A DNA stretch of 64,000 nt from Escherichia coli (GTDB lineage: Bacteria; Pseudomonadota; Gammaproteobacteria; Enterobacterales; Enterobacteriaceae), in assembly GCF_024223415.1 (NCBI RefSeq), contig NZ_CP100500.1; one strand, given 5' to 3'. Under the pieces are notes generated by a model, which was given only the letters and a program-made list of their open reading frames with translations, was not told where the DNA came from and did no database searches. Of the stretch, positions 11,645 through 37,580 are shown piece after piece. The position numbers and the translations under genes were made by a program. How positions within the stretch are numbered: position 1 is the stretch's first letter; each line of letters opens with the position of its first letter.

Positions 11645-14600
11645 CTAATCTCTGTCACGGAAACTACCGACTGTCTGGCGGATACGGCGTTCCATTTCCG
11701 CACGGACGGCATCACCCACCATTTTTGCCAGTTCGCGCGGGTTTTGCGTGTGAACATCATGCAGGTGAATATGCAGTTCGCCAGTTAATCCCCATGGTGC
11801 CGCCTCACTCTGGCGCGGTCGGGGCGATGCGGGGGATATGGGCTGGCGCACAGCCTCAACCACCGGACGGGATGTTGCCGCCATCACTGGTGTCATTAGC
11901 GGGGAGAACGTCGGCATGACATCGTGAGTCATAACCGGTTTGATCACCGGCGGAACCACTGGCGTAATATTACCGGACAGTACCGGACGGACGACCGGAG
12001 GAATAACCGGCACATTATTCACGGACACCACCGGCTTCACGACCGGCGACACGTTCGCCGTGGTGGATATCAGCGGCGAAACACTGACAGGCGGTGGCGC
12101 TGGCAGCGGTGGCAACGAAGGCACACTGACCGACGGCACCTGCGGCAGTCTGACAGGTGGCTCACTGACACTACCCGGTAACAGGGAAGCTGCGCGGTTA
12201 AAGCGTTCCTCCTTCCACTCACCACGAACGGCCAGCGCTTCCGGCAGGTTTTTAAAGATAATATCGCCGGGACCAGCGCGTTTTTTCGCCTGTTTCGCCT
12301 CATCCAGCAGACCACCGGTGTTATCGACGATTTTGTTCAGGCGGCGCATAGTGCCGGTATTCTCCCCCGTCAGGGGTGGTTGCCCCCCTTTGGGTTTTTC
12401 GCCGTATTTTTTATCCTCGTCCTTTTTCGGCGGATTAATGACGTTAACATCCGCCAGAAGCATGGCAGCTTTCTCGTTCAGCAACTCCTTCTGTTTTAGT
12501 TCTTCCGCTTTTTTCCGGGCGCGCTCAACCGCTGACGGAATCAGCCCGAGTTTTTCCAGCACCCGGGTTAATGAGTCAATCAGCAGCGTAACCGGACCGG
12601 TCACCAGATTGCTGATAAACTCCCCGACCTTCTGCCCGAACGTCCGCCCGGCTTCCGTGCACTTGTCCAGCTCATCCTTTGTTGTGCTTACCGGCGCGAA
12701 CAAATCCACGAACCACTGCCACACACGCCCGATTGTCTGCCCGACATACTCAAACAATGGTCCCAGTGGTGCCACAGCCTCGCGCAGTGGCGTAAGCCCC
12801 TGCCACAGGCCGGACAAGAACCCGCCCACGACAGCCTTCAGCTGGTCCCAGTGCCGCCAGATAAGCACTGCCGCACCGACCAGTGTCGCCACCACAAGGC
12901 CCACCGGACTTAACAGAAAACCCAGCGCCCCGCCAAGTGCGCCCACCGCACCACTCACCATCCCCCACAGTGCGGGCAGACCTGACAGTCTGAGCGCCAG
13001 TATTCCGATACCGCGCCCCAGTGAAATCAGTGCGCCGCCAGGTGAAGTGAACGCAGCCAGCAGACCACCACGCAGCGCGCCAAGTCCCGCCTGCACACCA
13101 CGAAGCCGCCCCGCAACTACGCCCAGCAGTGCAGCAAACCGTCCGGCACCGGAGGTGATACCGACAAACAGCACGCGCCAGCCACCGATACCGCCCAGCG
13201 GACCACCGAGTACGCCGCGCAGCTGCGTCAGTAACGGCAGCGCACGACCGAGGCCGGATGTGCCGGTCAGCAGGGCAAACCCAAGACGCAGTTTTGCCAG
13301 CGGCCCCATCAACACACCAGTGGCAAGTGACAGCGCCCCCATGGCCGCAACCGCAGCCAGCAGTACACCACCGGCAATCAGCAGTTGTTTTGTCAGTTCA
13401 GGGTGCGCCTGAGCCAGCGCGGTGACTTTCGCAATAACCCGGGTGAACGACTGCGTGACAGAACGCAGCGGCCCGTCAACGAGGTCAGCGATACGGATAC
13501 GCAGTCCTTCCCATGCGCTGTTCAGTGATTTCAGGTCACCGTCCAGGTTATCAACCATAACACGGGCAGTCTGATTAAGTTCCCCGGTGGCCAGTTCAAT
13601 CTCCTGCGTAAGACGGGGAAGATTATTTTCCCCCGCCGCAGTGACAAGATTCATCAGGGAAACATAGGACTCCTGCCCGGCAATAGCCCTGAAAAAGGAG
13701 ACCTGCGCGGCATTACCGTATTTTCGGGTGGCCTGGTACAGCTCATTCAGGATATTTTCCATCCGGCGCATGTTCCCGTAAGCATCCTGCGTCTCCACGC
13801 CAAGCTCTTTCAGTGCCATTGCAGCGGCCTTCGGCGGATCAACCAGACGTGACAGACTGGCACGCAGCGCCGTACCTGCATCACTTCCACGGATCCCCAC
13901 ACTGCCAAGGACACCCGTCATGGCTGCCGCCTGTTCAAGGGACAGGCCAAGTGAAGCTGCAACCGGCCCCGTGTACTTCATGGTTTCACCCAGCGAACGG
14001 AGATCCGTATTGGTTCGTGTGAAGGTGGCGGCCAGCGTGTCACCCACGCGATCCATCTGGTCAGCGGACAGACCAAACTGTGTGAGGATATTCGAACTGA
14101 TATCGGCAGTCTGTCCCAGGTCCATCCCTGCAGCCATTGCCAGATCAAGCACGCCGGGTAGCGCCGCCTGTATGGCCTGTGGTGTGAAGCTGGCCATGGC
14201 AAGGAACGCCTGACCGCTGGCAGCATCACCGGCGGTAAACTGCGTTTCAGAGCCCAGCTTAATGGCCTGTTCGCGCAGCGCCTTAAACTGCGGACTGTTT
14301 TTGTCAATACGGGTCAGCGCCTGGACGCGCGACATCTCCTTACCAAAACTGACCGCCGGTTGCAGGAAACGTCCGGCCGCATAGCCGCCTGCCGCCGCCG
14401 TACCAACCGCCGTAAGTCCGACCGTTTTAAGTTTTCCCGCCGTCTCCTGAGCACGGGAATATTGCTGGCGTGCCTGCGTGACACGTGCCAGCGCCTGCCG
14501 TTCGCGTTCCAGCTGGTCGTTGTATTGCTGTGTTCGCCGTATGGCCTGTTGAATGGTGTTGTCACTGCCGGAAAGCGCAATACCGTGGCGCCGCAGCTCA

Positions 14601-14992
14601 CCACCCAGTTCGCGCATTCGCTGAACTTCACGCGCACGGACCTCATTGAGACGCTCAAGTTTGAGGCTCAAATCGTTCATCAGCTTTTTCTGTTTGTCAG
14701 ACAGCACGGTTCCGGCGCGCTGAATTTGCTGAAGTGCGCTTAACTGGCGTTGCGCCCTGACAATGCCGTTTCCGGCCTTGTTTGCAGCCTCGCGGGCGCG
14801 ATCAAATGAACGGGCGTGGCGTTCCAGGTTTTTGATCGCACCCTGCGTTCTCTGTATGGAGTCGCCAAGCTGGCCCATCATGCGACGGGCGTTTTCGGTG
14901 GGACGGGTCAGCCTGTCAACAGCGCTGAAGGCGACCCGTATATCAAGCGTTTTCATGCTCTGCGTTCCCGCTGCGAAGGGCCGCCCGCTCAC
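11645..14992 (-). CDS. Tail tape measure protein (P2 gpT-like), with Pro/Val-rich C-terminal repeats
   Basis: 1115-aa ORF, long helical Ala/Gly-rich regions; alternative ATG start at 14956. Confidence 0.8.
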   Translation of the reverse strand: MSGRPFAAGTQSMKTLDIRVAFSAVDRLTRPTENARRMMGQLGDSIQRTQGAIKNLERHARSFDRAREAANKAGNGIVRAQRQLSALQQIQRAGTVLSDKQKKLMNDLSLKLERLNEVRAREVQRMRELGGELRRHGIALSGSDNTIQQAIRRTQQYNDQLERERQALARVTQARQQYSRAQETAGKLKTVGLTAVGTAAAGGYAAGRFLQPAVSFGKEMSRVQALTRIDKNSPQFKALREQAIKLGSETQFTAGDAASGQAFLAMASFTPQAIQAALPGVLDLAMAAGMDLGQTADISSNILTQFGLSADQMDRVGDTLAATFTRTNTDLRSLGETMKYTGPVAASLGLSLEQAAAMTGVLGSVGIRGSDAGTALRASLSRLVDPPKAAAMALKELGVETQDAYGNMRRMENILNELYQATRKYGNAAQVSFFRAIAGQESYVSLMNLVTAAGENNLPRLTQEIELATGELNQTARVMVDNLDGDLKSLNSAWEGLRIRIADLVDGPLRSVTQSFTRVIAKVTALAQAHPELTKQLLIAGGVLLAAVAAMGALSLATGVLMGPLAKLRLGFALLTGTSGLGRALPLLTQLRGVLGGPLGGIGGWRVLFVGITSGAGRFAALLGVVAGRLRGVQAGLGALRGGLLAAFTSPGGALISLGRGIGILALRLSGLPALWGMVSGAVGALGGALGFLLSPVGLVVATLVGAAVLIWRHWDQLKAVVGGFLSGLWQGLTPLREAVAPLGPLFEYVGQTIGRVWQWFVDLFAPVSTTKDELDKCTEAGRTFGQKVGEFISNLVTGPVTLLIDSLTRVLEKLGLIPSAVERARKKAEELKQKELLNEKAAMLLADVNVINPPKKDEDKKYGEKPKGGQPPLTGENTGTMRRLNKIVDNTGGLLDEAKQAKKRAGPGDIIFKNLPEALAVRGEWKEERFNRAASLLPGSVSEPPVRLPQVPSVSVPSLPPLPAPPPVSVSPLISTTANVSPVVKPVVSVNNVPVIPPVVRPVLSGNITPVVPPVIKPVMTHDVMPTFSPLMTPVMAATSRPVVEAVRQPISPASPRPRQSEAAPWGLTGELHIHLHDVHTQNPRELAKMVGDAVRAEMERRIRQTVGSFRDRD

Positions 14993-18617: not shown

Positions 18618-18869
18618 ATGTTCCGTTGTCCCCTATGCGGTGCATCCGCACGTATCCGCACCAGTCGCAATGAAAATGATTCAGGCACAGTTCGCCTGAA
18701 GTACTACCAGTGCAATAACCTCGAATGCGGGATCGGCTTTACCACACTGGAGGGTTTTAACAAATTCACATCAAAACGCGCCCCGTCGCCGCAGGGTACA
18801 GAGCGGATACCGTGGGAAGATTTTCCGGGATCTCACAGGGGGAATACTCAGATTAATCTTGATATTTAA
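18618..18869 (+). CDS. ogr: Ogr/Delta-family zinc-finger late-gene activator
   Basis: 83 aa; CPLC...C(x4)C arrangement MFRCPLCGASARIRTSR...YYQCNNLECG; last gene before prophage junction. Confidence 0.75.
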   Translation: MFRCPLCGASARIRTSRNENDSGTVRLKYYQCNNLECGIGFTTLEGFNKFTSKRAPSPQGTERIPWEDFPGSHRGNTQINLDI

Positions 18870-18980
18870 GAACAATAATCAGGTTGAGAGGACATCATAA
18901 GGCAAGTAGATTAACGGCAGATACTTTCCCGCAACCACGGGCAAGTATTTAATTATCCATGATGAAATATGACCTAAATT

Positions 18981-19014
18981 GTTTTTTGCCCGCCGGAAAG
19001 CGGGCATTTTTTTA
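18981..19014 (+). terminator. Intrinsic terminator, candidate prophage attR core
   Basis: gcccgc cggaaa gcgggc hairpin flanked by T runs on both sides; same element recurs 7 more times downstream. Confidence 0.6.
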
Positions 19015-19227
19015 TTCTTTTGTGGTTATGGGGTCATCAGGAACCACGTGCAGATTATATTTTTGTTTTTTTGGCGTTCCTCCGGCAGCAACGAGTTCAT
19101 CAATAAGACACTGACACGCCTGAACATCCCGGGCATGTCTTAGTTTCACCTTTATTGATTTAACCTTATCCTCACCGGAGGAGAAATGCAGTTCAATCTC
19201 AATATCGTTTCTTCGGAACAATCTCAT
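19012..19227 (-). CDS. Hypothetical small protein (71 aa) in module M
   Basis: ATG at 19227 preceded by AGGGGG; intact only in this copy, truncated or degenerate in the other two M copies. Confidence 0.25.
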   Translation of the reverse strand: MRLFRRNDIEIELHFSSGEDKVKSIKVKLRHARDVQACQCLIDELVAAGGTPKKQKYNLHVVPDDPITTKE

Positions 19228-19398
19228 ACGCCCCCTGAATATATCAGAAATACTAGTATCGAAAAATGAGAAAACAGTTAGACAGGAGAAACATATTAAC
19301 ACAAATCATTTATACCTATAGATGAAATTATAATTTCATTCATGAATATGATAGATAACTATATTGTGAACAAAATGAAAAATGGCTAAATTAAAAAT

Positions 19399-19478
19399 GG
19401 GCATGGAGGAATGCCCGGTTATCAATATAATGTGACGTAGATCATTGTTTTGCCCGCCGGAGAGCGGGCATTTTTTTT
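19399..19478 (+). ncRNA. Candidate small RNA S1
   Basis: Promoter-like TTGTGA(19364)-N17-TAAATT(19387), about 80-nt unit with internal hairpin gggcatggaggaatgccc, ends in intrinsic terminator. Confidence 0.35.
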
Positions 19479-19678
19479 GCGCCTGCCATCGAGGCGCCTT
19501 CCCTGGCGCACACAAAGCAGCCCTGATTTTCCATGAAAACTTCAGGGTTGAGCTGCGGGCACAAAGTGAGTAGATTAGCTACGGGTACCTCCCCCTGACA
19601 ACAGGAAGGGTGTCCATTATCCATGATATACAAACGAAAAGTCTTGTTTTTTGCCCGCCGAAGCGCGGGCATTTTTTT
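19479..19678 (+). ncRNA. Candidate structured RNA U1 (about 200 nt)
   Basis: Bounded by two terminators; internal hairpins gcgcct..aggcgc, ccctga..tcaggg, ccttcc..ggaagg; 4 copies in window. Confidence 0.3.
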
Positions 19679-19723
19679 ATGCATCAGACAAGATACAGCC
19701 CACCCCAACTGACACCTGAAATA

Positions 19724-19752
19724 TTGCCGCAACAAAAAGAAACAGTTAAATT
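19724..19752 (+). promoter_or_regulatory. Sigma70-like promoter for hok1 transcript
   Basis: TTGCCG-N17-TAAATT, about 145 nt upstream of hok1 ATG. Confidence 0.4.
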
Positions 19753-19804
19753 ACGCGCGGGTGCCTTTCGGCTGATGGCCGGAGGGAAAACCTGAAGGCC
19801 GGAT

Positions 19805-20038
19805 GTGGAAAGGCCCCGGAAAACATTTCTGTTTAACCGAGGCCCTAACCGCATTACCTTGACAAGTGAAAGGTTAGCGCCTCTCCGGAAAAGGAGCAAG
19901 TGCTATGTCGCAAAAATCGCTTACGGCCATCACGTTCTGCGTGACGGCAATCCTCATCATCTGGATATTGCACGGTTCGCTGTGCGAAATACGGATGAGC
20001 TTCTGGGGAGCGGAGTTTGCGGCGTTCTTACAATGTAA
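19805..20038 (+). CDS. mok-like overlapping reading frame
   Basis: 77-codon frame overlapping hok1 in a different frame, as in hok/mok loci. Confidence 0.3.
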   Translation: MERPRKTFLFNRGPNRITLTSERLAPLRKRSKCYVAKIAYGHHVLRDGNPHHLDIARFAVRNTDELLGSGVCGVLTM

Positions 20039-20045
20039 GAAGTAA
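19905..20045 (+). CDS. Hok/Gef-family type I toxin (46 aa)
   Basis: MSQKSLTAITFCVTAILIIWILHGSLCEIRMSFWGAEFAAFLQCKK: TM helix plus SLCEI..AAFL.CK signature; AAGGAG 8 nt upstream. Confidence 0.6.
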   Translation: MSQKSLTAITFCVTAILIIWILHGSLCEIRMSFWGAEFAAFLQCKK

Positions 20046-20133
20046 GGAAACCGCGACGGGGGAGCAATCCCCCGTCAATCGGTTGCCAGGGTAAGGTCGA
20101 TAAGGCACCCTATCTCACAGACATGAACAAACA

Positions 20134-20167
20134 AACCCGCAGCATAAAAACTGCGGGTTTTCTTTTT
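20134..20167 (+). terminator. Intrinsic terminator after hok1
   Basis: cccgcag cataaaaa ctgcggg followed by ttttcttttt. Confidence 0.5.
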
Positions 20168-20571
20168 GGTGTCCTCACCGACTTGAAACAGTGATCAGAC
20201 TATAAGACAAAGCCCGCAATGTTGCGGGCTTACTCTACCTCTCGAAAATGTGGTCACTGCGTGGACATACGCTGATACAAATCCTTTATATCAATAAATT
20301 AAATCTTTGTTTTTTTCATCAACAATGATTTAACCTTATCCTCACCGGAGGAGAAATGCAGTTCAATCTCAATATCGTTTCTGTGGAACAGCCTCATAAG
20401 ACAACCTCCTGAATTCATCAGAAACACAGTCAACTGAAAACCAGAAAGCAGACAAACAGTGGACACACATTAATACAAATCATTTATACCTATAGATGAA
20501 ATTGCAGTTTCATCTATAACATGACAGGTAACAATATTGTGAAAAAACTCAAAACTCGTTAGATTAAAGAC

Positions 20572-20651
20572 GGACAGAGCAATGCTACTTTATCAATAAC
20601 ATGTAACCTGTACTTCCTTATTTTGCCCGCCGAAGCACGGGCATTTTTTTT
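20572..20651 (+). ncRNA. Candidate small RNA S2
   Basis: TTGTGA(20537)-N17-TAGATT(20560), terminator at 20625-20651; central region differs from S1. Confidence 0.3.
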
Positions 20652-20849
20652 GCGCCTGCCATCGAGGCGCCTTCCCTGGCGCACACAAAGCAGCCCTGAT
20701 TTTCCATGAAAACTTCAGGGTTGAGCCAAAAGCACAAAGACAGTAGATTAACCACGGGTGCCTTCCACCTGACAACAGGAAGGGTGTCCAGTATCAATGA
20801 CAGACAACTCACATTGCTGTTTTGCCCGCCGGAAAGCGGGCATTTTTTT
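20652..20849 (+). ncRNA. Candidate structured RNA U2
   Basis: Copy of U unit ending in terminator 20821-20849. Confidence 0.3.
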
Positions 20850-21219
20850 ATTCTTTTGTGGTTATTGGGTCATCAGGAACAACATGCAGATTATGCTTTG
20901 ATTTTTTTGGTGTTATTACAGCAGCAACGAGTTTATTAATAAGACACTGACATGCCTGAACATCCCTGACATATCATAATATCACTTTATTTTTTTAGCT
21001 TGTCCTTTCTGGAGCAGAAATATCTCAACATCGTTTCTGTGGAACAACCTCATTTGCCCTTGAATGTATCATAAATATCAGCATCGGAAAACCAACAGCA
21101 ATACAGAAGAAACATGTTAATGCAAATCACTTATACCTATAGATGAAATTACAGTTTTGTTCATAAATATGATAAGTAACTATATTGTGAATAAAATGAA
21201 AACTAGCTAAATTAAACGT

Positions 21220-21300
21220 GGGCATGGTGGAATGCCTCGTAATCAATAATACATGATCCGTACTTCCTTGTTTTGCCCGCCGGAAAGCGGGCATTTTTTT
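21220..21300 (+). ncRNA. Candidate small RNA S3
   Basis: TTGTGA(21185)-N17-TAAATT(21208), hairpin gggcatggtggaatgcc, terminator to 21300. Confidence 0.3.
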
Positions 21301-21497
21301 GGCGGTTACCATCGCCTCACCTTCCTGGTTCACATGAAGCAACCCTGATTTTCCATGAAAACTTCAGGGTTGAGACAAAAGCACAAAGACAGTAGATTAA
21401 CCACGGGTACCTTCCACCTGACAACAGGAAGGCTGTCCAGTATCAATGACAGACAACTCACATTGCTGTTTTGCCCGCCGGAAAGCGGGCTTTTTTT
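21301..21497 (+). ncRNA. Candidate structured RNA U3
   Basis: Copy of U unit, terminator 21469-21497. Confidence 0.3.
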
Positions 21498-21698
21498 GGC
21501 AGTTATCATAGCCGCACCTTCCTGGCACATATGAAGCAACCCTGATTTTCCATGAAAACTTCAGGGTTGAGACAAAAGCACAAAAACAGTAGATTAACCA
21601 CGGGTGCCTGCCACCTGACAACAGGAAGGGTGTCCATTATCCATGATATACAAACGAAAAGTCTTGTCTTTTGCCCGCCAAAGCGCGGGCATTTTTTT
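21498..21698 (+). ncRNA. Candidate structured RNA U4 (hok-associated subtype)
   Basis: Copy of U unit with the same 3' end as U1, terminator 21671-21698. Confidence 0.3.
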
Positions 21699-21909
21699 AT
21701 GCATCAGACAAGATACAGCCCACCCCAACTGACACCTGAAATATTGCCGCAACAAAAAGAAACGGGTGCCTTTCGGCTGATGGCCGGAGGGAAAACCTGA
21801 AGGCCGGATGTGGAAAGGCCCCGGAAAACATCTGTGTTTAACCGAGGCCTGACCCTTCCTACCGTGACAAGTGGAAGGTTAGCGCCTCTTTGTAAAAGGA
21901 GCAAGCGCT

Positions 21910-22050
21910 ATACCGCAAAAAACGATTATTGTTGGCATTTTATGCCTGACAATAACCCTGGTCATCTGGATGGTCCACGATTCGTTATGTGAATTCAGCT
22001 TTGATATCTGGGGAGCGCGTTTTGCGGCGTTCTTGCAGTGTAAACCGTAA
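21910..22050 (+). pseudogene. Hok-family toxin remnant: start codon ATA, promoter -10 deleted
   Basis: Frame encodes PQKTIIVGILCLTITLVIWMVHDSLCEFSFDIWGARFAAFLQCKP after AAGGAG, but first codon is ATA and an in-frame TAG lies 10 codons upstream. Confidence 0.55.
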
Positions 22051-22200
22051 GAAACCGCAGCGGGGGAGAAATTCCCCGCTATCCGGTTGTTGGGGTGGGC
22101 CGATATGGCGCCCTTTCCCTGTAGAGACAAAACAAAAAACCAGATTTGCCCGCCATTGAGAGGGCTTTTTTGTCACCCTCACCAGTGAGGGCATCATCAT

Positions 22201-22428
22201 TCAGAGGCGCGTAAGCCACCCGGCGTTAACATCCTGCCTGTCAACCCTGGCCGCAGAGTCTGAACGGCAGGTACCGGAAGGAGTACCAAAAACATCCCTG
22301 ACAAGTTCCGCCACCTTCCCGATATCATCAGGTGTCACATTCCTCACCTCGGCAGTGATCCGTGGCGTACCATCATCGTTAACAAGAGTGGCTTTAAAGC
22401 TGGTGCGAAGGGAAAACAACATCAACAT
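22201..22428 (-). CDS. Hypothetical protein (75 aa)
   Basis: ORF only; no recognisable motif. Confidence 0.2.
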   Translation of the reverse strand: MLMLFSLRTSFKATLVNDDGTPRITAEVRNVTPDDIGKVAELVRDVFGTPSGTCRSDSAARVDRQDVNAGWLTRL

Positions 22429-22626
22429 CCCCTCCCTTTGGTTCGTTGCACTGACGGCACGACACCATCAGGAAAAAGAAAAGCCCACAACGTCAGTATT
22501 GTGGACTTTTTTCTTCAAAGATGGACATTATCTGGACACATGAAAATAAAATCCATTTATTTTCATATAGTTAAGTACCATGCAAAAGCGCCCGCAGGCG
22601 CTTTTTAGATTCAGAAAAATTAGGTA

Positions 22627-23940
<1,314 letters not shown>

Positions 23941-37492: not shown

Positions 37493-37580
37493 GGTGAGGT
37501 GTCCGAGTGGCTGAAGGAGCACGCCTGGAAAGTGTGTATACGGCAACGTATCGGGGGTTCGAATCCCCCCCTCACCGCCA
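37493..37580 (+). tRNA. serW: tRNA-Ser (anticodon GGA)
   Basis: 88-nt GGTGAGGTGTCCGAGTGGCTGAAGGAGCACGCCTGGAAAGTGTG...GGTTCGAATCCCCCCCTCACCGCCA with long variable arm; downstream of infA as for serW. Confidence 0.93.

Follow-up and report, generated by a model that had tools for sequence, protein, structure and literature searches.

Within a 64,000-nt stretch of the Escherichia coli chromosome (NCBI RefSeq assembly GCF_024223415.1, contig NZ_CP100500.1; hereafter the window), three short repeats termed S1, S2 and S3 are located between positions 19,364 and 21,300, and an earlier note on this DNA had proposed that they constitute a three-member family of small RNAs (sRNAs) with diversified targets. 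On balance, we favor the view that the S units are three of eight miniature, toxin-less hok units carried as cargo by a prophage, that they are probably transcribed, and that they are most likely leftovers. Judging by sequence similarity, all eight units are homologous to the ends of hok cassettes in their 3' tail and terminator, and the four units of the L class (L1 to L4) are also homologous to them in their 5' end. All family members found come from a single recent lineage of phages.

The eight-unit family and its prophage

Each S unit lies on the + strand and displays the promoter that had been proposed for it, with a -35 element TTGTGA (19364-19369 in S1, 20537-20542 in S2, and 21185-21190 in S3) separated by a 17-nt spacer from a -10 element that reads TAAATT (19387-19392), TAGATT (20560-20565) and TAAATT (21208-21213), respectively. 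The predicted RNAs begin about 7 nt 3' of the -10 element and cover positions 19399-19478 (S1), 20572-20651 (S2) and 21220-21300 (S3), in keeping with the suggested length of ~80 nt, the full units occupying 19364..19478, 20537..20651 and 21185..21300. All three finish in the same terminator (TGCCCGC-loop-GCGGGCA plus 7-8 T; stem at 19451-19470 in S1), and the hairpin GGGCAUGG(A/U)GGAAUGCC described in the earlier note is indeed common to S1 (19399-19416) and S3, S2 having no comparable one and no stable 5' hairpin at all. With a sigma-70-like promoter at one end, an intrinsic terminator behind a U-rich stretch at the other and a middle that is unstructured, each S unit has the anatomy of an autonomous small-RNA gene, in agreement with the earlier note.

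That the S units are paralogous repeats was also confirmed, and the repetition exceeds chance (repeat families D5 and D9; covariance-model E-values near 1e-20). The number of members had been underestimated, however, since eight sites rather than three align from the -35 element to the terminator, a single alignment spanning this distance in all of them. The pattern TTGWG-N18-TARATTA has eight exact matches in the window, all on the + strand (0.03 expected), and a search of the window with the covariance model returned the eight units only. These units (U1, S1-S3 and L1-L4) span 18884-21699 on the + strand and share one architecture. U1 (18884..19013) carries a -35 element TTGAGA at 18884-18889 and a -10 element TAGATT at 18907-18912, and its predicted RNA (~18919-19013) includes a 5' hairpin, UAUCCAUGA and the terminator. 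L1 (19548..19679; -35 TTGAGC, -10 TAGATT) is predicted to give rise to an RNA at ~19583-19679, and the remaining L units are located at 20721..20850 (L2; predicted RNA ~20756-20850), 21370..21498 (L3; ~21405-21497) and 21567..21699 (L4; ~21602-21699).

The promoter of every unit is laid out as TTG(A/T)G(A/C), a 17-nt spacer and TA(G/A)ATT, and a hairpin is found at the predicted +1 of all units but S2, in three unrelated sequence types (U1, S1/S3 and L). A UAUC(A/C)AUGA-like motif, predicted to be single-stranded, is present in every unit; 3' of this motif, the units differ from one another over ~20-25 nt and then pass through a U-rich run into the terminator. Among the eight paralogues, invariant columns make up 9/12 positions of the promoter hexamers as opposed to 2/17 of the spacer (Fisher p=0.0013), and they also fall in the terminator stem. 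The L-class helices are paired in 96.5% of cells and show no double-sided changes, and covariation therefore carries no statistical power. Judging from the sequence, each unit appears to be equipped with a separate promoter and with an intrinsic terminator that is preceded by a U-rich stretch and ends in a long U tail. Since these signals look intact, stable transcripts of 80-98 nt are probably still produced in lysogens. Such RNAs would probably comprise a 5' hairpin, an open middle of ~30 nt and a U-rich, Hfq-type terminator, a U-rich stretch followed by a GC-rich stem and 7-8 U being the Hfq-binding type of 3' end. Palindromes were also observed 5' of the unit promoters, namely ATGAAATTATAATTTCAT between the open reading frame (ORF) ORF71 and S1 (19322-19339; a further site at 20487-20504) and GATTTTCCATGAAAAC ahead of each L -35 element (e.g., 20690-20712), and these might be candidate operator sites.

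The array is carried by a complete P2-like prophage, from int through ogr, in the E. coli chromosome. The region 5' of the array encodes P2-type tail genes, gpD and ogr, the P2 late activator (18618..18869, +; RefSeq annotation of an identical region), with which the core phage genes end and the cargo begins. An identical genome shows the prophage continuing to cox, C and int, adjoining dmsA. Comparison of attR, attL and the empty K-12 site placed the att core, GCGCCCGCAGG, at 22589-22599, within the terminator of serS (22627-23919, -), and positions 18870-22588 are therefore entirely phage DNA, located between ogr and attP. The attR site (22515..22599) includes a P' arm with TGGACA direct repeats and an A/T-rich stretch.

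The array was detected in 30 of 5426 complete E. coli genomes, a permissive blastn search giving the same 30. It is absent from the INPHARED phage records and from 100,044 species-representative genomes (five unrelated matches, in other phyla), and the IMG/VR and JGI metagenomes hold copies of the same E. coli phage only. A wider family, for which the earlier note had suggested looking, did not emerge from covariance-model and sequence searches of other genomes, its members being restricted to that single lineage. Related prophages at the copA, zapB/glpF and ihfA sites hold shorter versions of the array, those at the copA and ihfA sites without any hok gene. U1 is 100% identical in the copA-site prophage (L004), and its covariance score is constant (126 bits) across every prophage variant searched.

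Homology to hok/sok cassette ends

Expression of hok is regulated through pairing of the tac and fbi elements and through 3' processing of the mRNA (PMC9841398). The window contains an apparently intact hok/sok cassette, hok1 (19724..20160, +), and a hok pseudogene, hok2 (21744..22171, +), and nhmmer searches of the window with profiles of the unit halves led to both of them. The best non-unit match of the 5'-half profile was the promoter and 5' end of hok1 (E 0.046) and that of the 3'-half profile was the 3' end of hok2 (E 1.7e-4), each in the correct orientation. The hok1 promoter (TTGCCG-N17-TAAATT, 19724-19752) aligns without gaps to the unit promoters, with TTG, N17, TA.ATTA and GGG at equal distance, and the L units open with GGGUGCCUU, which is identical to hok1 tac and pairs locally with the complementary GGAAGGGUGUCC in the predicted 5' hairpin. 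At the other end, common hok 3' tails read fbi (GGCACCC)-TATC(C/T)CA(T/C)GGACACAAAC...terminator, the unit tails read ...TATCCATGATATACAAAC, and the conserved UAUCCAUGAUAUACAAAC resembles the hok 3' tail by eye.

Full-length cassettes were found in comparable positions of related phages. At least 120 IMG/VR contigs matched a hok promoter/5'-end pattern, with a hok ORF following in 107 of 120 matches, and in many cases only ~300 nt separate the match from the end of its contig, which is ~36 kb long. Moreover, the end of a related prophage integrated at the same serS site (L152) carries two full-length tandem hok cassettes in the place that the units occupy here. The terminator-spacer-promoter-5' junction of this tandem is similar to the S-to-L and L-to-L junctions of the array (z 9-12, ~75% identity over 123-136 nt). 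When compared with 54 distinct hok 5' ends, the 5' half of the L units reached z 7.3; no significant similarity to these 54 ends was found for the 5' halves of S (z 1.5-1.7) or for U1 (z 0.2), which leaves a derivation of the S promoter half from hok promoters unsupported.

Compared with hok/sok as known from plasmid R1, chromosomal loci and prophage loci of the hokW type, all units share the terminator, the inter-cassette spacer and the UAUC... 3' tail, and the L class additionally shares the promoter and the first ~28 nt, including tac. Unlike hok/sok, no unit contains a hok frame (~50 aa, LCE(I/V)R motif) or the overlapping mok frame, the only such sequences in the window being the hok1 ORF and the hok2 remnant, and no unit was matched by the Rfam sok model (RF01794) even at E<=10. 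The tac-fbi pairing is local only, and the promoter halves of S and U1 are not detectably hok-like. As to complementarity of the tac/fbi type, the hairpins of U1 and S1/S3 are unrelated in sequence and S2 has none.

The earlier note had allowed that the units might be pieces of once larger genes that have decayed, and this is largely what we found. Homology to hok/sok cassette ends covers the 3' tail and terminator in every unit and, in the L class, extends to the promoter and 5' end. Decay and rearrangement are evident around the units as well: hok2 is a pseudogene, two copies of ORF71 are dead, att arms persist as relics, two array types (A and B) are joined into a composite, and one variant carries IS1.

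We propose that hok/sok type I toxin-antitoxin cassettes, of the kind present in full and in tandem at this place in related P2-like prophages, were the ancestors of the units, at least of their 3' halves. The L units would have kept the hok promoter, the first ~28 nt with the tac end, an fbi-like complement, the 3' tail and the hok-type terminator. Lost from them would be a ~340-nt interior, with both reading frames (mok and hok) and the Sok region that the Rfam sok model recognizes, so that of the long-range tac-fbi pairing a local 5' hairpin is left. In S and U1, a hok derivation is proposed for the 3' tail and terminator only, the promoter half having the same layout. Recombination between related phages may then have amplified and shuffled these mini-cassettes.

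Pedersen and Gerdes are said to have described, in 1999, inactivated chromosomal hok loci of E. coli K-12 in which the hok sequence is still recognisable. Toxicity in such loci is lost by mutation or rearrangement, and hok2 of the window is a case of this kind. Unlike the K-12 loci, the units are devoid of the entire interior, keep promoter and terminator, and occur in eight copies. We are aware of no published hok derivative that combines a competent promoter and terminator with loss of the whole interior, and a full-text literature search for the unit terminator sequence gave no match.

Leftovers or functional RNAs

Several observations weigh against regarding the units as hok leftovers. In all eight units, conservation of the promoter hexamers, of their exact 17-nt distance and of the terminator stems exceeds that of spacers and loops, and the ORF71 copies and hok2 decayed within the same duplicated blocks in which these signals are conserved. 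Selection for expression could likewise account for such conservation amid decay. The 5' hairpins of U1, S1/S3 and L, unrelated to each other in sequence, were all kept at the predicted +1, and the minimal set of U1, S and two L-type units is retained in every array variant seen. With regard to ancestry, the promoter halves of S and U1 are not hok-like, and the hok ancestry of these units therefore depends on the 3' half alone, where the UAUC motif was likened to the hok 3' tail on visual inspection, without a score. It should be noted that the conservation of the hexamers could equally be explained as inheritance from functional hok promoters that diverged before the interior was lost.

The divergence of the cores bears directly on the targets that had been proposed. 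The mutual identity of S1-S3 is 69-81% for the core and 67-83% for the hairpin; the promoter shows 76-90%, the terminator 87-90%, and the 140 nt preceding the units 76-78%. The earlier note had argued from conserved flanks around a variable core, but this contrast is weak. A core identity of 69-81% against 76-78% upstream indicates that core divergence is close to the background level of the duplicated blocks, and conservation beyond that level is limited, among S1-S3, to the promoter hexamers and the terminator. A search of the window for 10-mer complementarity gave, the units themselves aside, only scattered chance matches of ~10-12 nt, with no complementarity of 12 nt or more elsewhere. Likewise, RNAduplex predictions against the ORF71 mRNA, the hok1 mRNA, the Sok region, ORF75 and ogr were no better than those for shuffled sequences, with the isolated exception of S3 against the Sok region (z -2.9). 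Of the proposed sRNAs with diversified targets, the gene anatomy is supported and the diversified targeting cores are not, given their near-background divergence, the lack of above-chance complementarity in the window and the lack of members beyond one phage lineage. We regard the units as most likely evolutionary leftovers rather than purpose-built regulators with diversified seeds, and an acquired sRNA function as possible.

The best surviving alternative, which we consider tenable though unlikely, is that the units were co-opted in lysogens as Hfq-dependent base-pairing sRNAs of the phage or as sponges of host sRNAs, with the former hok 3' tail serving as seed and the copies acting on different transcripts of the host or of competitor phages. 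Conservation of promoter hexamers and terminators above spacers and loops, unit middles that are predicted to be single-stranded, a 3' end of the Hfq-binding type (UUGUUUU, then a GC-rich stem and 7-8 U) and a minimal array kept in all variants are consistent with co-option. However, the hexamer conservation may be inherited from functional hok promoters, the cores are neither conserved nor excessively diverged relative to background, S2 has no hairpin, and the units occur in one recent phage lineage only.

At gathering and E-value thresholds, Rfam contained no family for any unit. The nearest architectures are those of phage or Hfq-associated sRNAs, as co-option would lead one to expect, but AgvB (RF02702; 23.2 vs. 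56 bits), RyhB (RF00057; 24.4 vs. 55) and RseX (RF01401; 26.1 vs. 50) all score far under their gathering thresholds, which argues against membership in these families, and the matches are mostly driven by the terminator. The C/A-rich stretch of L2 is predicted to pair with the R1 region of GcvB (-22.8 kcal/mol, z -2.1), which would suit a sponge; neither this value nor that of S1 (z -2.7) is significant after seven tests, and an anti-GcvB role was discarded. AgvB and AsxR come from lambdoid phages, not from P2-like ones. The units resemble these anti-sRNAs of enterohemorrhagic E. coli (EHEC) prophages in being short and in having a C/A-rich open stretch, a GCCCG...CGGGCA terminator and a U run, and differ from them in the Rfam score (23 bits vs. 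a gathering score of 56) and in the weakness of the predicted GcvB pairing.

OmrA/OmrB and PrrF1/PrrF2 are core-genome regulators with conserved seeds and known regulons. Like them, the units are adjacent paralogues with their own promoter and terminator and partly divergent bodies; unlike them, the units show no apparent conserved seed or target and belong to a single phage lineage. The Pas sRNAs (PasA-D) of enteropathogenic E. coli and EHEC prophages, which have been traced mainly to Stx-converting phages (bioRxiv 10.64898/2026.05.13.724894), are similarly prophage-borne, with sequence variants and a strain-variable copy number, a likeness that is drawn by description only.

A kindred proposal, about which we are doubtful, is the birth of an sRNA family from a type I toxin cassette, in which interior loss would have yielded an 80-98-nt RNA that was multiplied to eight copies, these acting now as riboregulators, host-sRNA sponges or modulators of hok activation. 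The tac-fbi pairing would have turned into a hairpin protecting the 5' end, and an Hfq-binding seed module would have formed from the former 3' tail with its terminator. If expressed and functional, the units would represent a clear, datable case of a trans-acting sRNA gene arising from a toxin mRNA, and the interval from ogr to attR would be an added lysogenic-conversion cargo site of P2-like phages. If they are relics, as we favor, they record the decay of tandem hok/sok cargo, with the toxin lost while the expression signals persist, and an att-proximal accretion via recombination between related phages. Either way, a conserved promoter and terminator around a divergent middle should not be taken as evidence for diversified targets without a check of ancestry.

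It is improbable that the mini-cassettes tune the toxicity of hok1, whether by competing for 3' exonucleolytic processing or by pairing in trans with the ends of the hok1 mRNA. The L units start with hok1 tac (GGGUGCCUU) and contain the complementary GGAAGGGUGUCC, L1 and L4 lie directly 5' of hok1 and hok2, respectively, in the window, and tac/fbi pairing and 3' processing are described features of hok biology (PMC9841398). Nevertheless, the tac-like and fbi-like elements are paired together in a stable hairpin within the unit, duplexes with the hok1 mRNA and the Sok region are comparable to shuffled controls apart from the one isolated value, and the arrays at the copA and ihfA sites are hok-less.

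The repeats could also act as DNA, either as att-proximal modules for binding or bending by Int, IHF or Cox, or as stacked insulating terminators that shield hok and the host flank from read-through of ogr and the late operon. Relic att arms are interleaved with the units, nine + strand copies of the terminator lie between ogr and attR (repeat family D2; a terminator scan finds eight), and palindromes precede the S and L promoters. We nonetheless consider a DNA role very unlikely, as insulation needs no promoters, yet the promoters are the best conserved part after the terminator, and the basal phage arrangement (ogr, ORF133, attP) is without any unit, indicating that the units are not required for integration or excision.

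Finally, S1 (19403-19435) and S3 (21224-21256) contain 10-codon ATG-to-TGA frames (MEECPVINIM and MVECLVINNT, respectively). That they encode a peptide is hardly credible, since the frame, although of equal length in S1, S3 and the S unit of the copA-site prophage, is preceded by no Shine-Dalgarno sequence, starts with an ATG inside the 5' hairpin at 4 nt from the predicted RNA start, has no equivalent in S2 and is represented by too few variants to test coding constraint.

Neighboring elements and the composite array

The components of hok1 (+) comprise tac (GGGTGCCTT, 19759-19767) at the mRNA 5' end, an ORF at 19905-20045 (phrog_251, E 8.5e-22), fbi (AAGGCACCC) at 20102-20110 and a terminator at 20133-20160, tac and fbi forming a perfect 9-bp pair. 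The sok model matched only 19759-19918 and 21764-21921 in the window, with 46-48 bits against a gathering score of 59. The second of these matches (48 bits) belongs to hok2, whose ORF remnant lies at 21910-22050 and whose lesions comprise the deletion of the -10 element (19740-19758 vs. 21744-21763) and an ATA start codon at 21910. The terminator of hok2, at 22148-22171, resembles those of the units in type. An L4-like unit of the copA-site prophage ends exactly at the position of this terminator, suggesting recombination between the two terminators.

ORF71 (19012..19227, -) corresponds to the C-terminal domain of a ~130-aa protein to which no function was assigned. Its N-terminal domain has been lost, a remnant at 19228-19290 stopping at a relic arm. 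Full relatives of ~130 aa are encoded between ogr and attP in other P2-like phages (L040:1405-1806), where no RNA units are present, and short homologues adjoin genes of P4-type satellites (Derepression, Toprim primase). ORF71 had no match in Pfam, NCBIfam or PADLOC, and its AlphaFold model is poor (pLDDT 58). A truncated copy at 20299-20397 (-) has its middle joined to a relic attP arm, and a decayed third copy at 20853..21055 (-) is interrupted by stop codons. A functional partnership between ORF71 and S was not supported, ORF71 being an orphan-like C-terminal domain without a match in Pfam, NCBIfam or PADLOC; with the second and third copies dead and S2 and S3 intact, S appears to be independent of ORF71 in cis.

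The relic arms were compared by eye with the true P' arm (22515-22575) and the attP arm of L040. Five att-arm-like copies were recognized, in which (T)GGACA direct repeats give way to AAATC-ATTTAT, a stretch rich in A/T. Four of them are relics; the copy at 22515-22575 alone adjoins the real att core. Three relics belong to repeat family D8 and lie 5' of S1 (19285..19328) and at 20459-20502 and 21106-21149. The fourth, a relic attP P' arm at 20235..20304, follows a hairpin at 20210-20231 and consists of TGTGGTCA/CGTGGACA direct repeats; it is located 3' of hok1 and fused to the middle of the ORF71 copy, at the junction of array types A and B, and this fusion resembles a scar left when the end of one phage recombined into that of another. 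By analogy with P2 and cyaR, the unit terminators were also considered as att cores left over from integration events that target sRNAs; this was discarded, as the true att core maps to the serS terminator and the orientation of the units does not suit such an origin.

Array type A consists of U1, ORF71, S1, L1, hok1 and the arm relic, and type B of S2, L2, the dead ORF71 copy, S3, L3, L4 and the dead hok2. Type B occurs alone in metagenome contigs, there with an intact ORF71, and the array of the window is a composite in which type A is joined into the middle of the type B ORF71. One metagenome copy of the array (L045:13750-13981) has IS1 inserted in the truncated ORF71 copy. Taken together, the composite, the relics and the IS1 variant indicate that the ogr-att end is a recombination-prone zone of accretion.

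Beside attR, ORF75 (22201..22428, -) encodes a small protein of 75 aa to which protein-family searches assigned no function. Its place is taken by a hicAB toxin-antitoxin pair in the ihfA-site prophage (L033:2902-3502), and the ogr-attR interval thus behaves as a variable cargo site. This site is distinct from the cargo hotspot of P2-like phages described by Rousset et al. (2022), which is located between gpA and gpQ (PMC9122126).

In addition, RefSeq annotates the tail tape-measure gene of the prophage (L001:5962-8157, window ~12760-14960) as an incomplete pseudogene, a call that recurs in all four copies inspected (serS, zapB and copA sites). The prophage is ~37 kb long, the P2 genome being smaller. 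The prophage may be defective, or the tape-measure call may be an annotation artefact. Unrelated to the units, the window also contains an 85-nt tRNA gene at 37493-37577 (+) and an Rfam match to the IS102 RNA at 49751-49947 (-; 88 bits).

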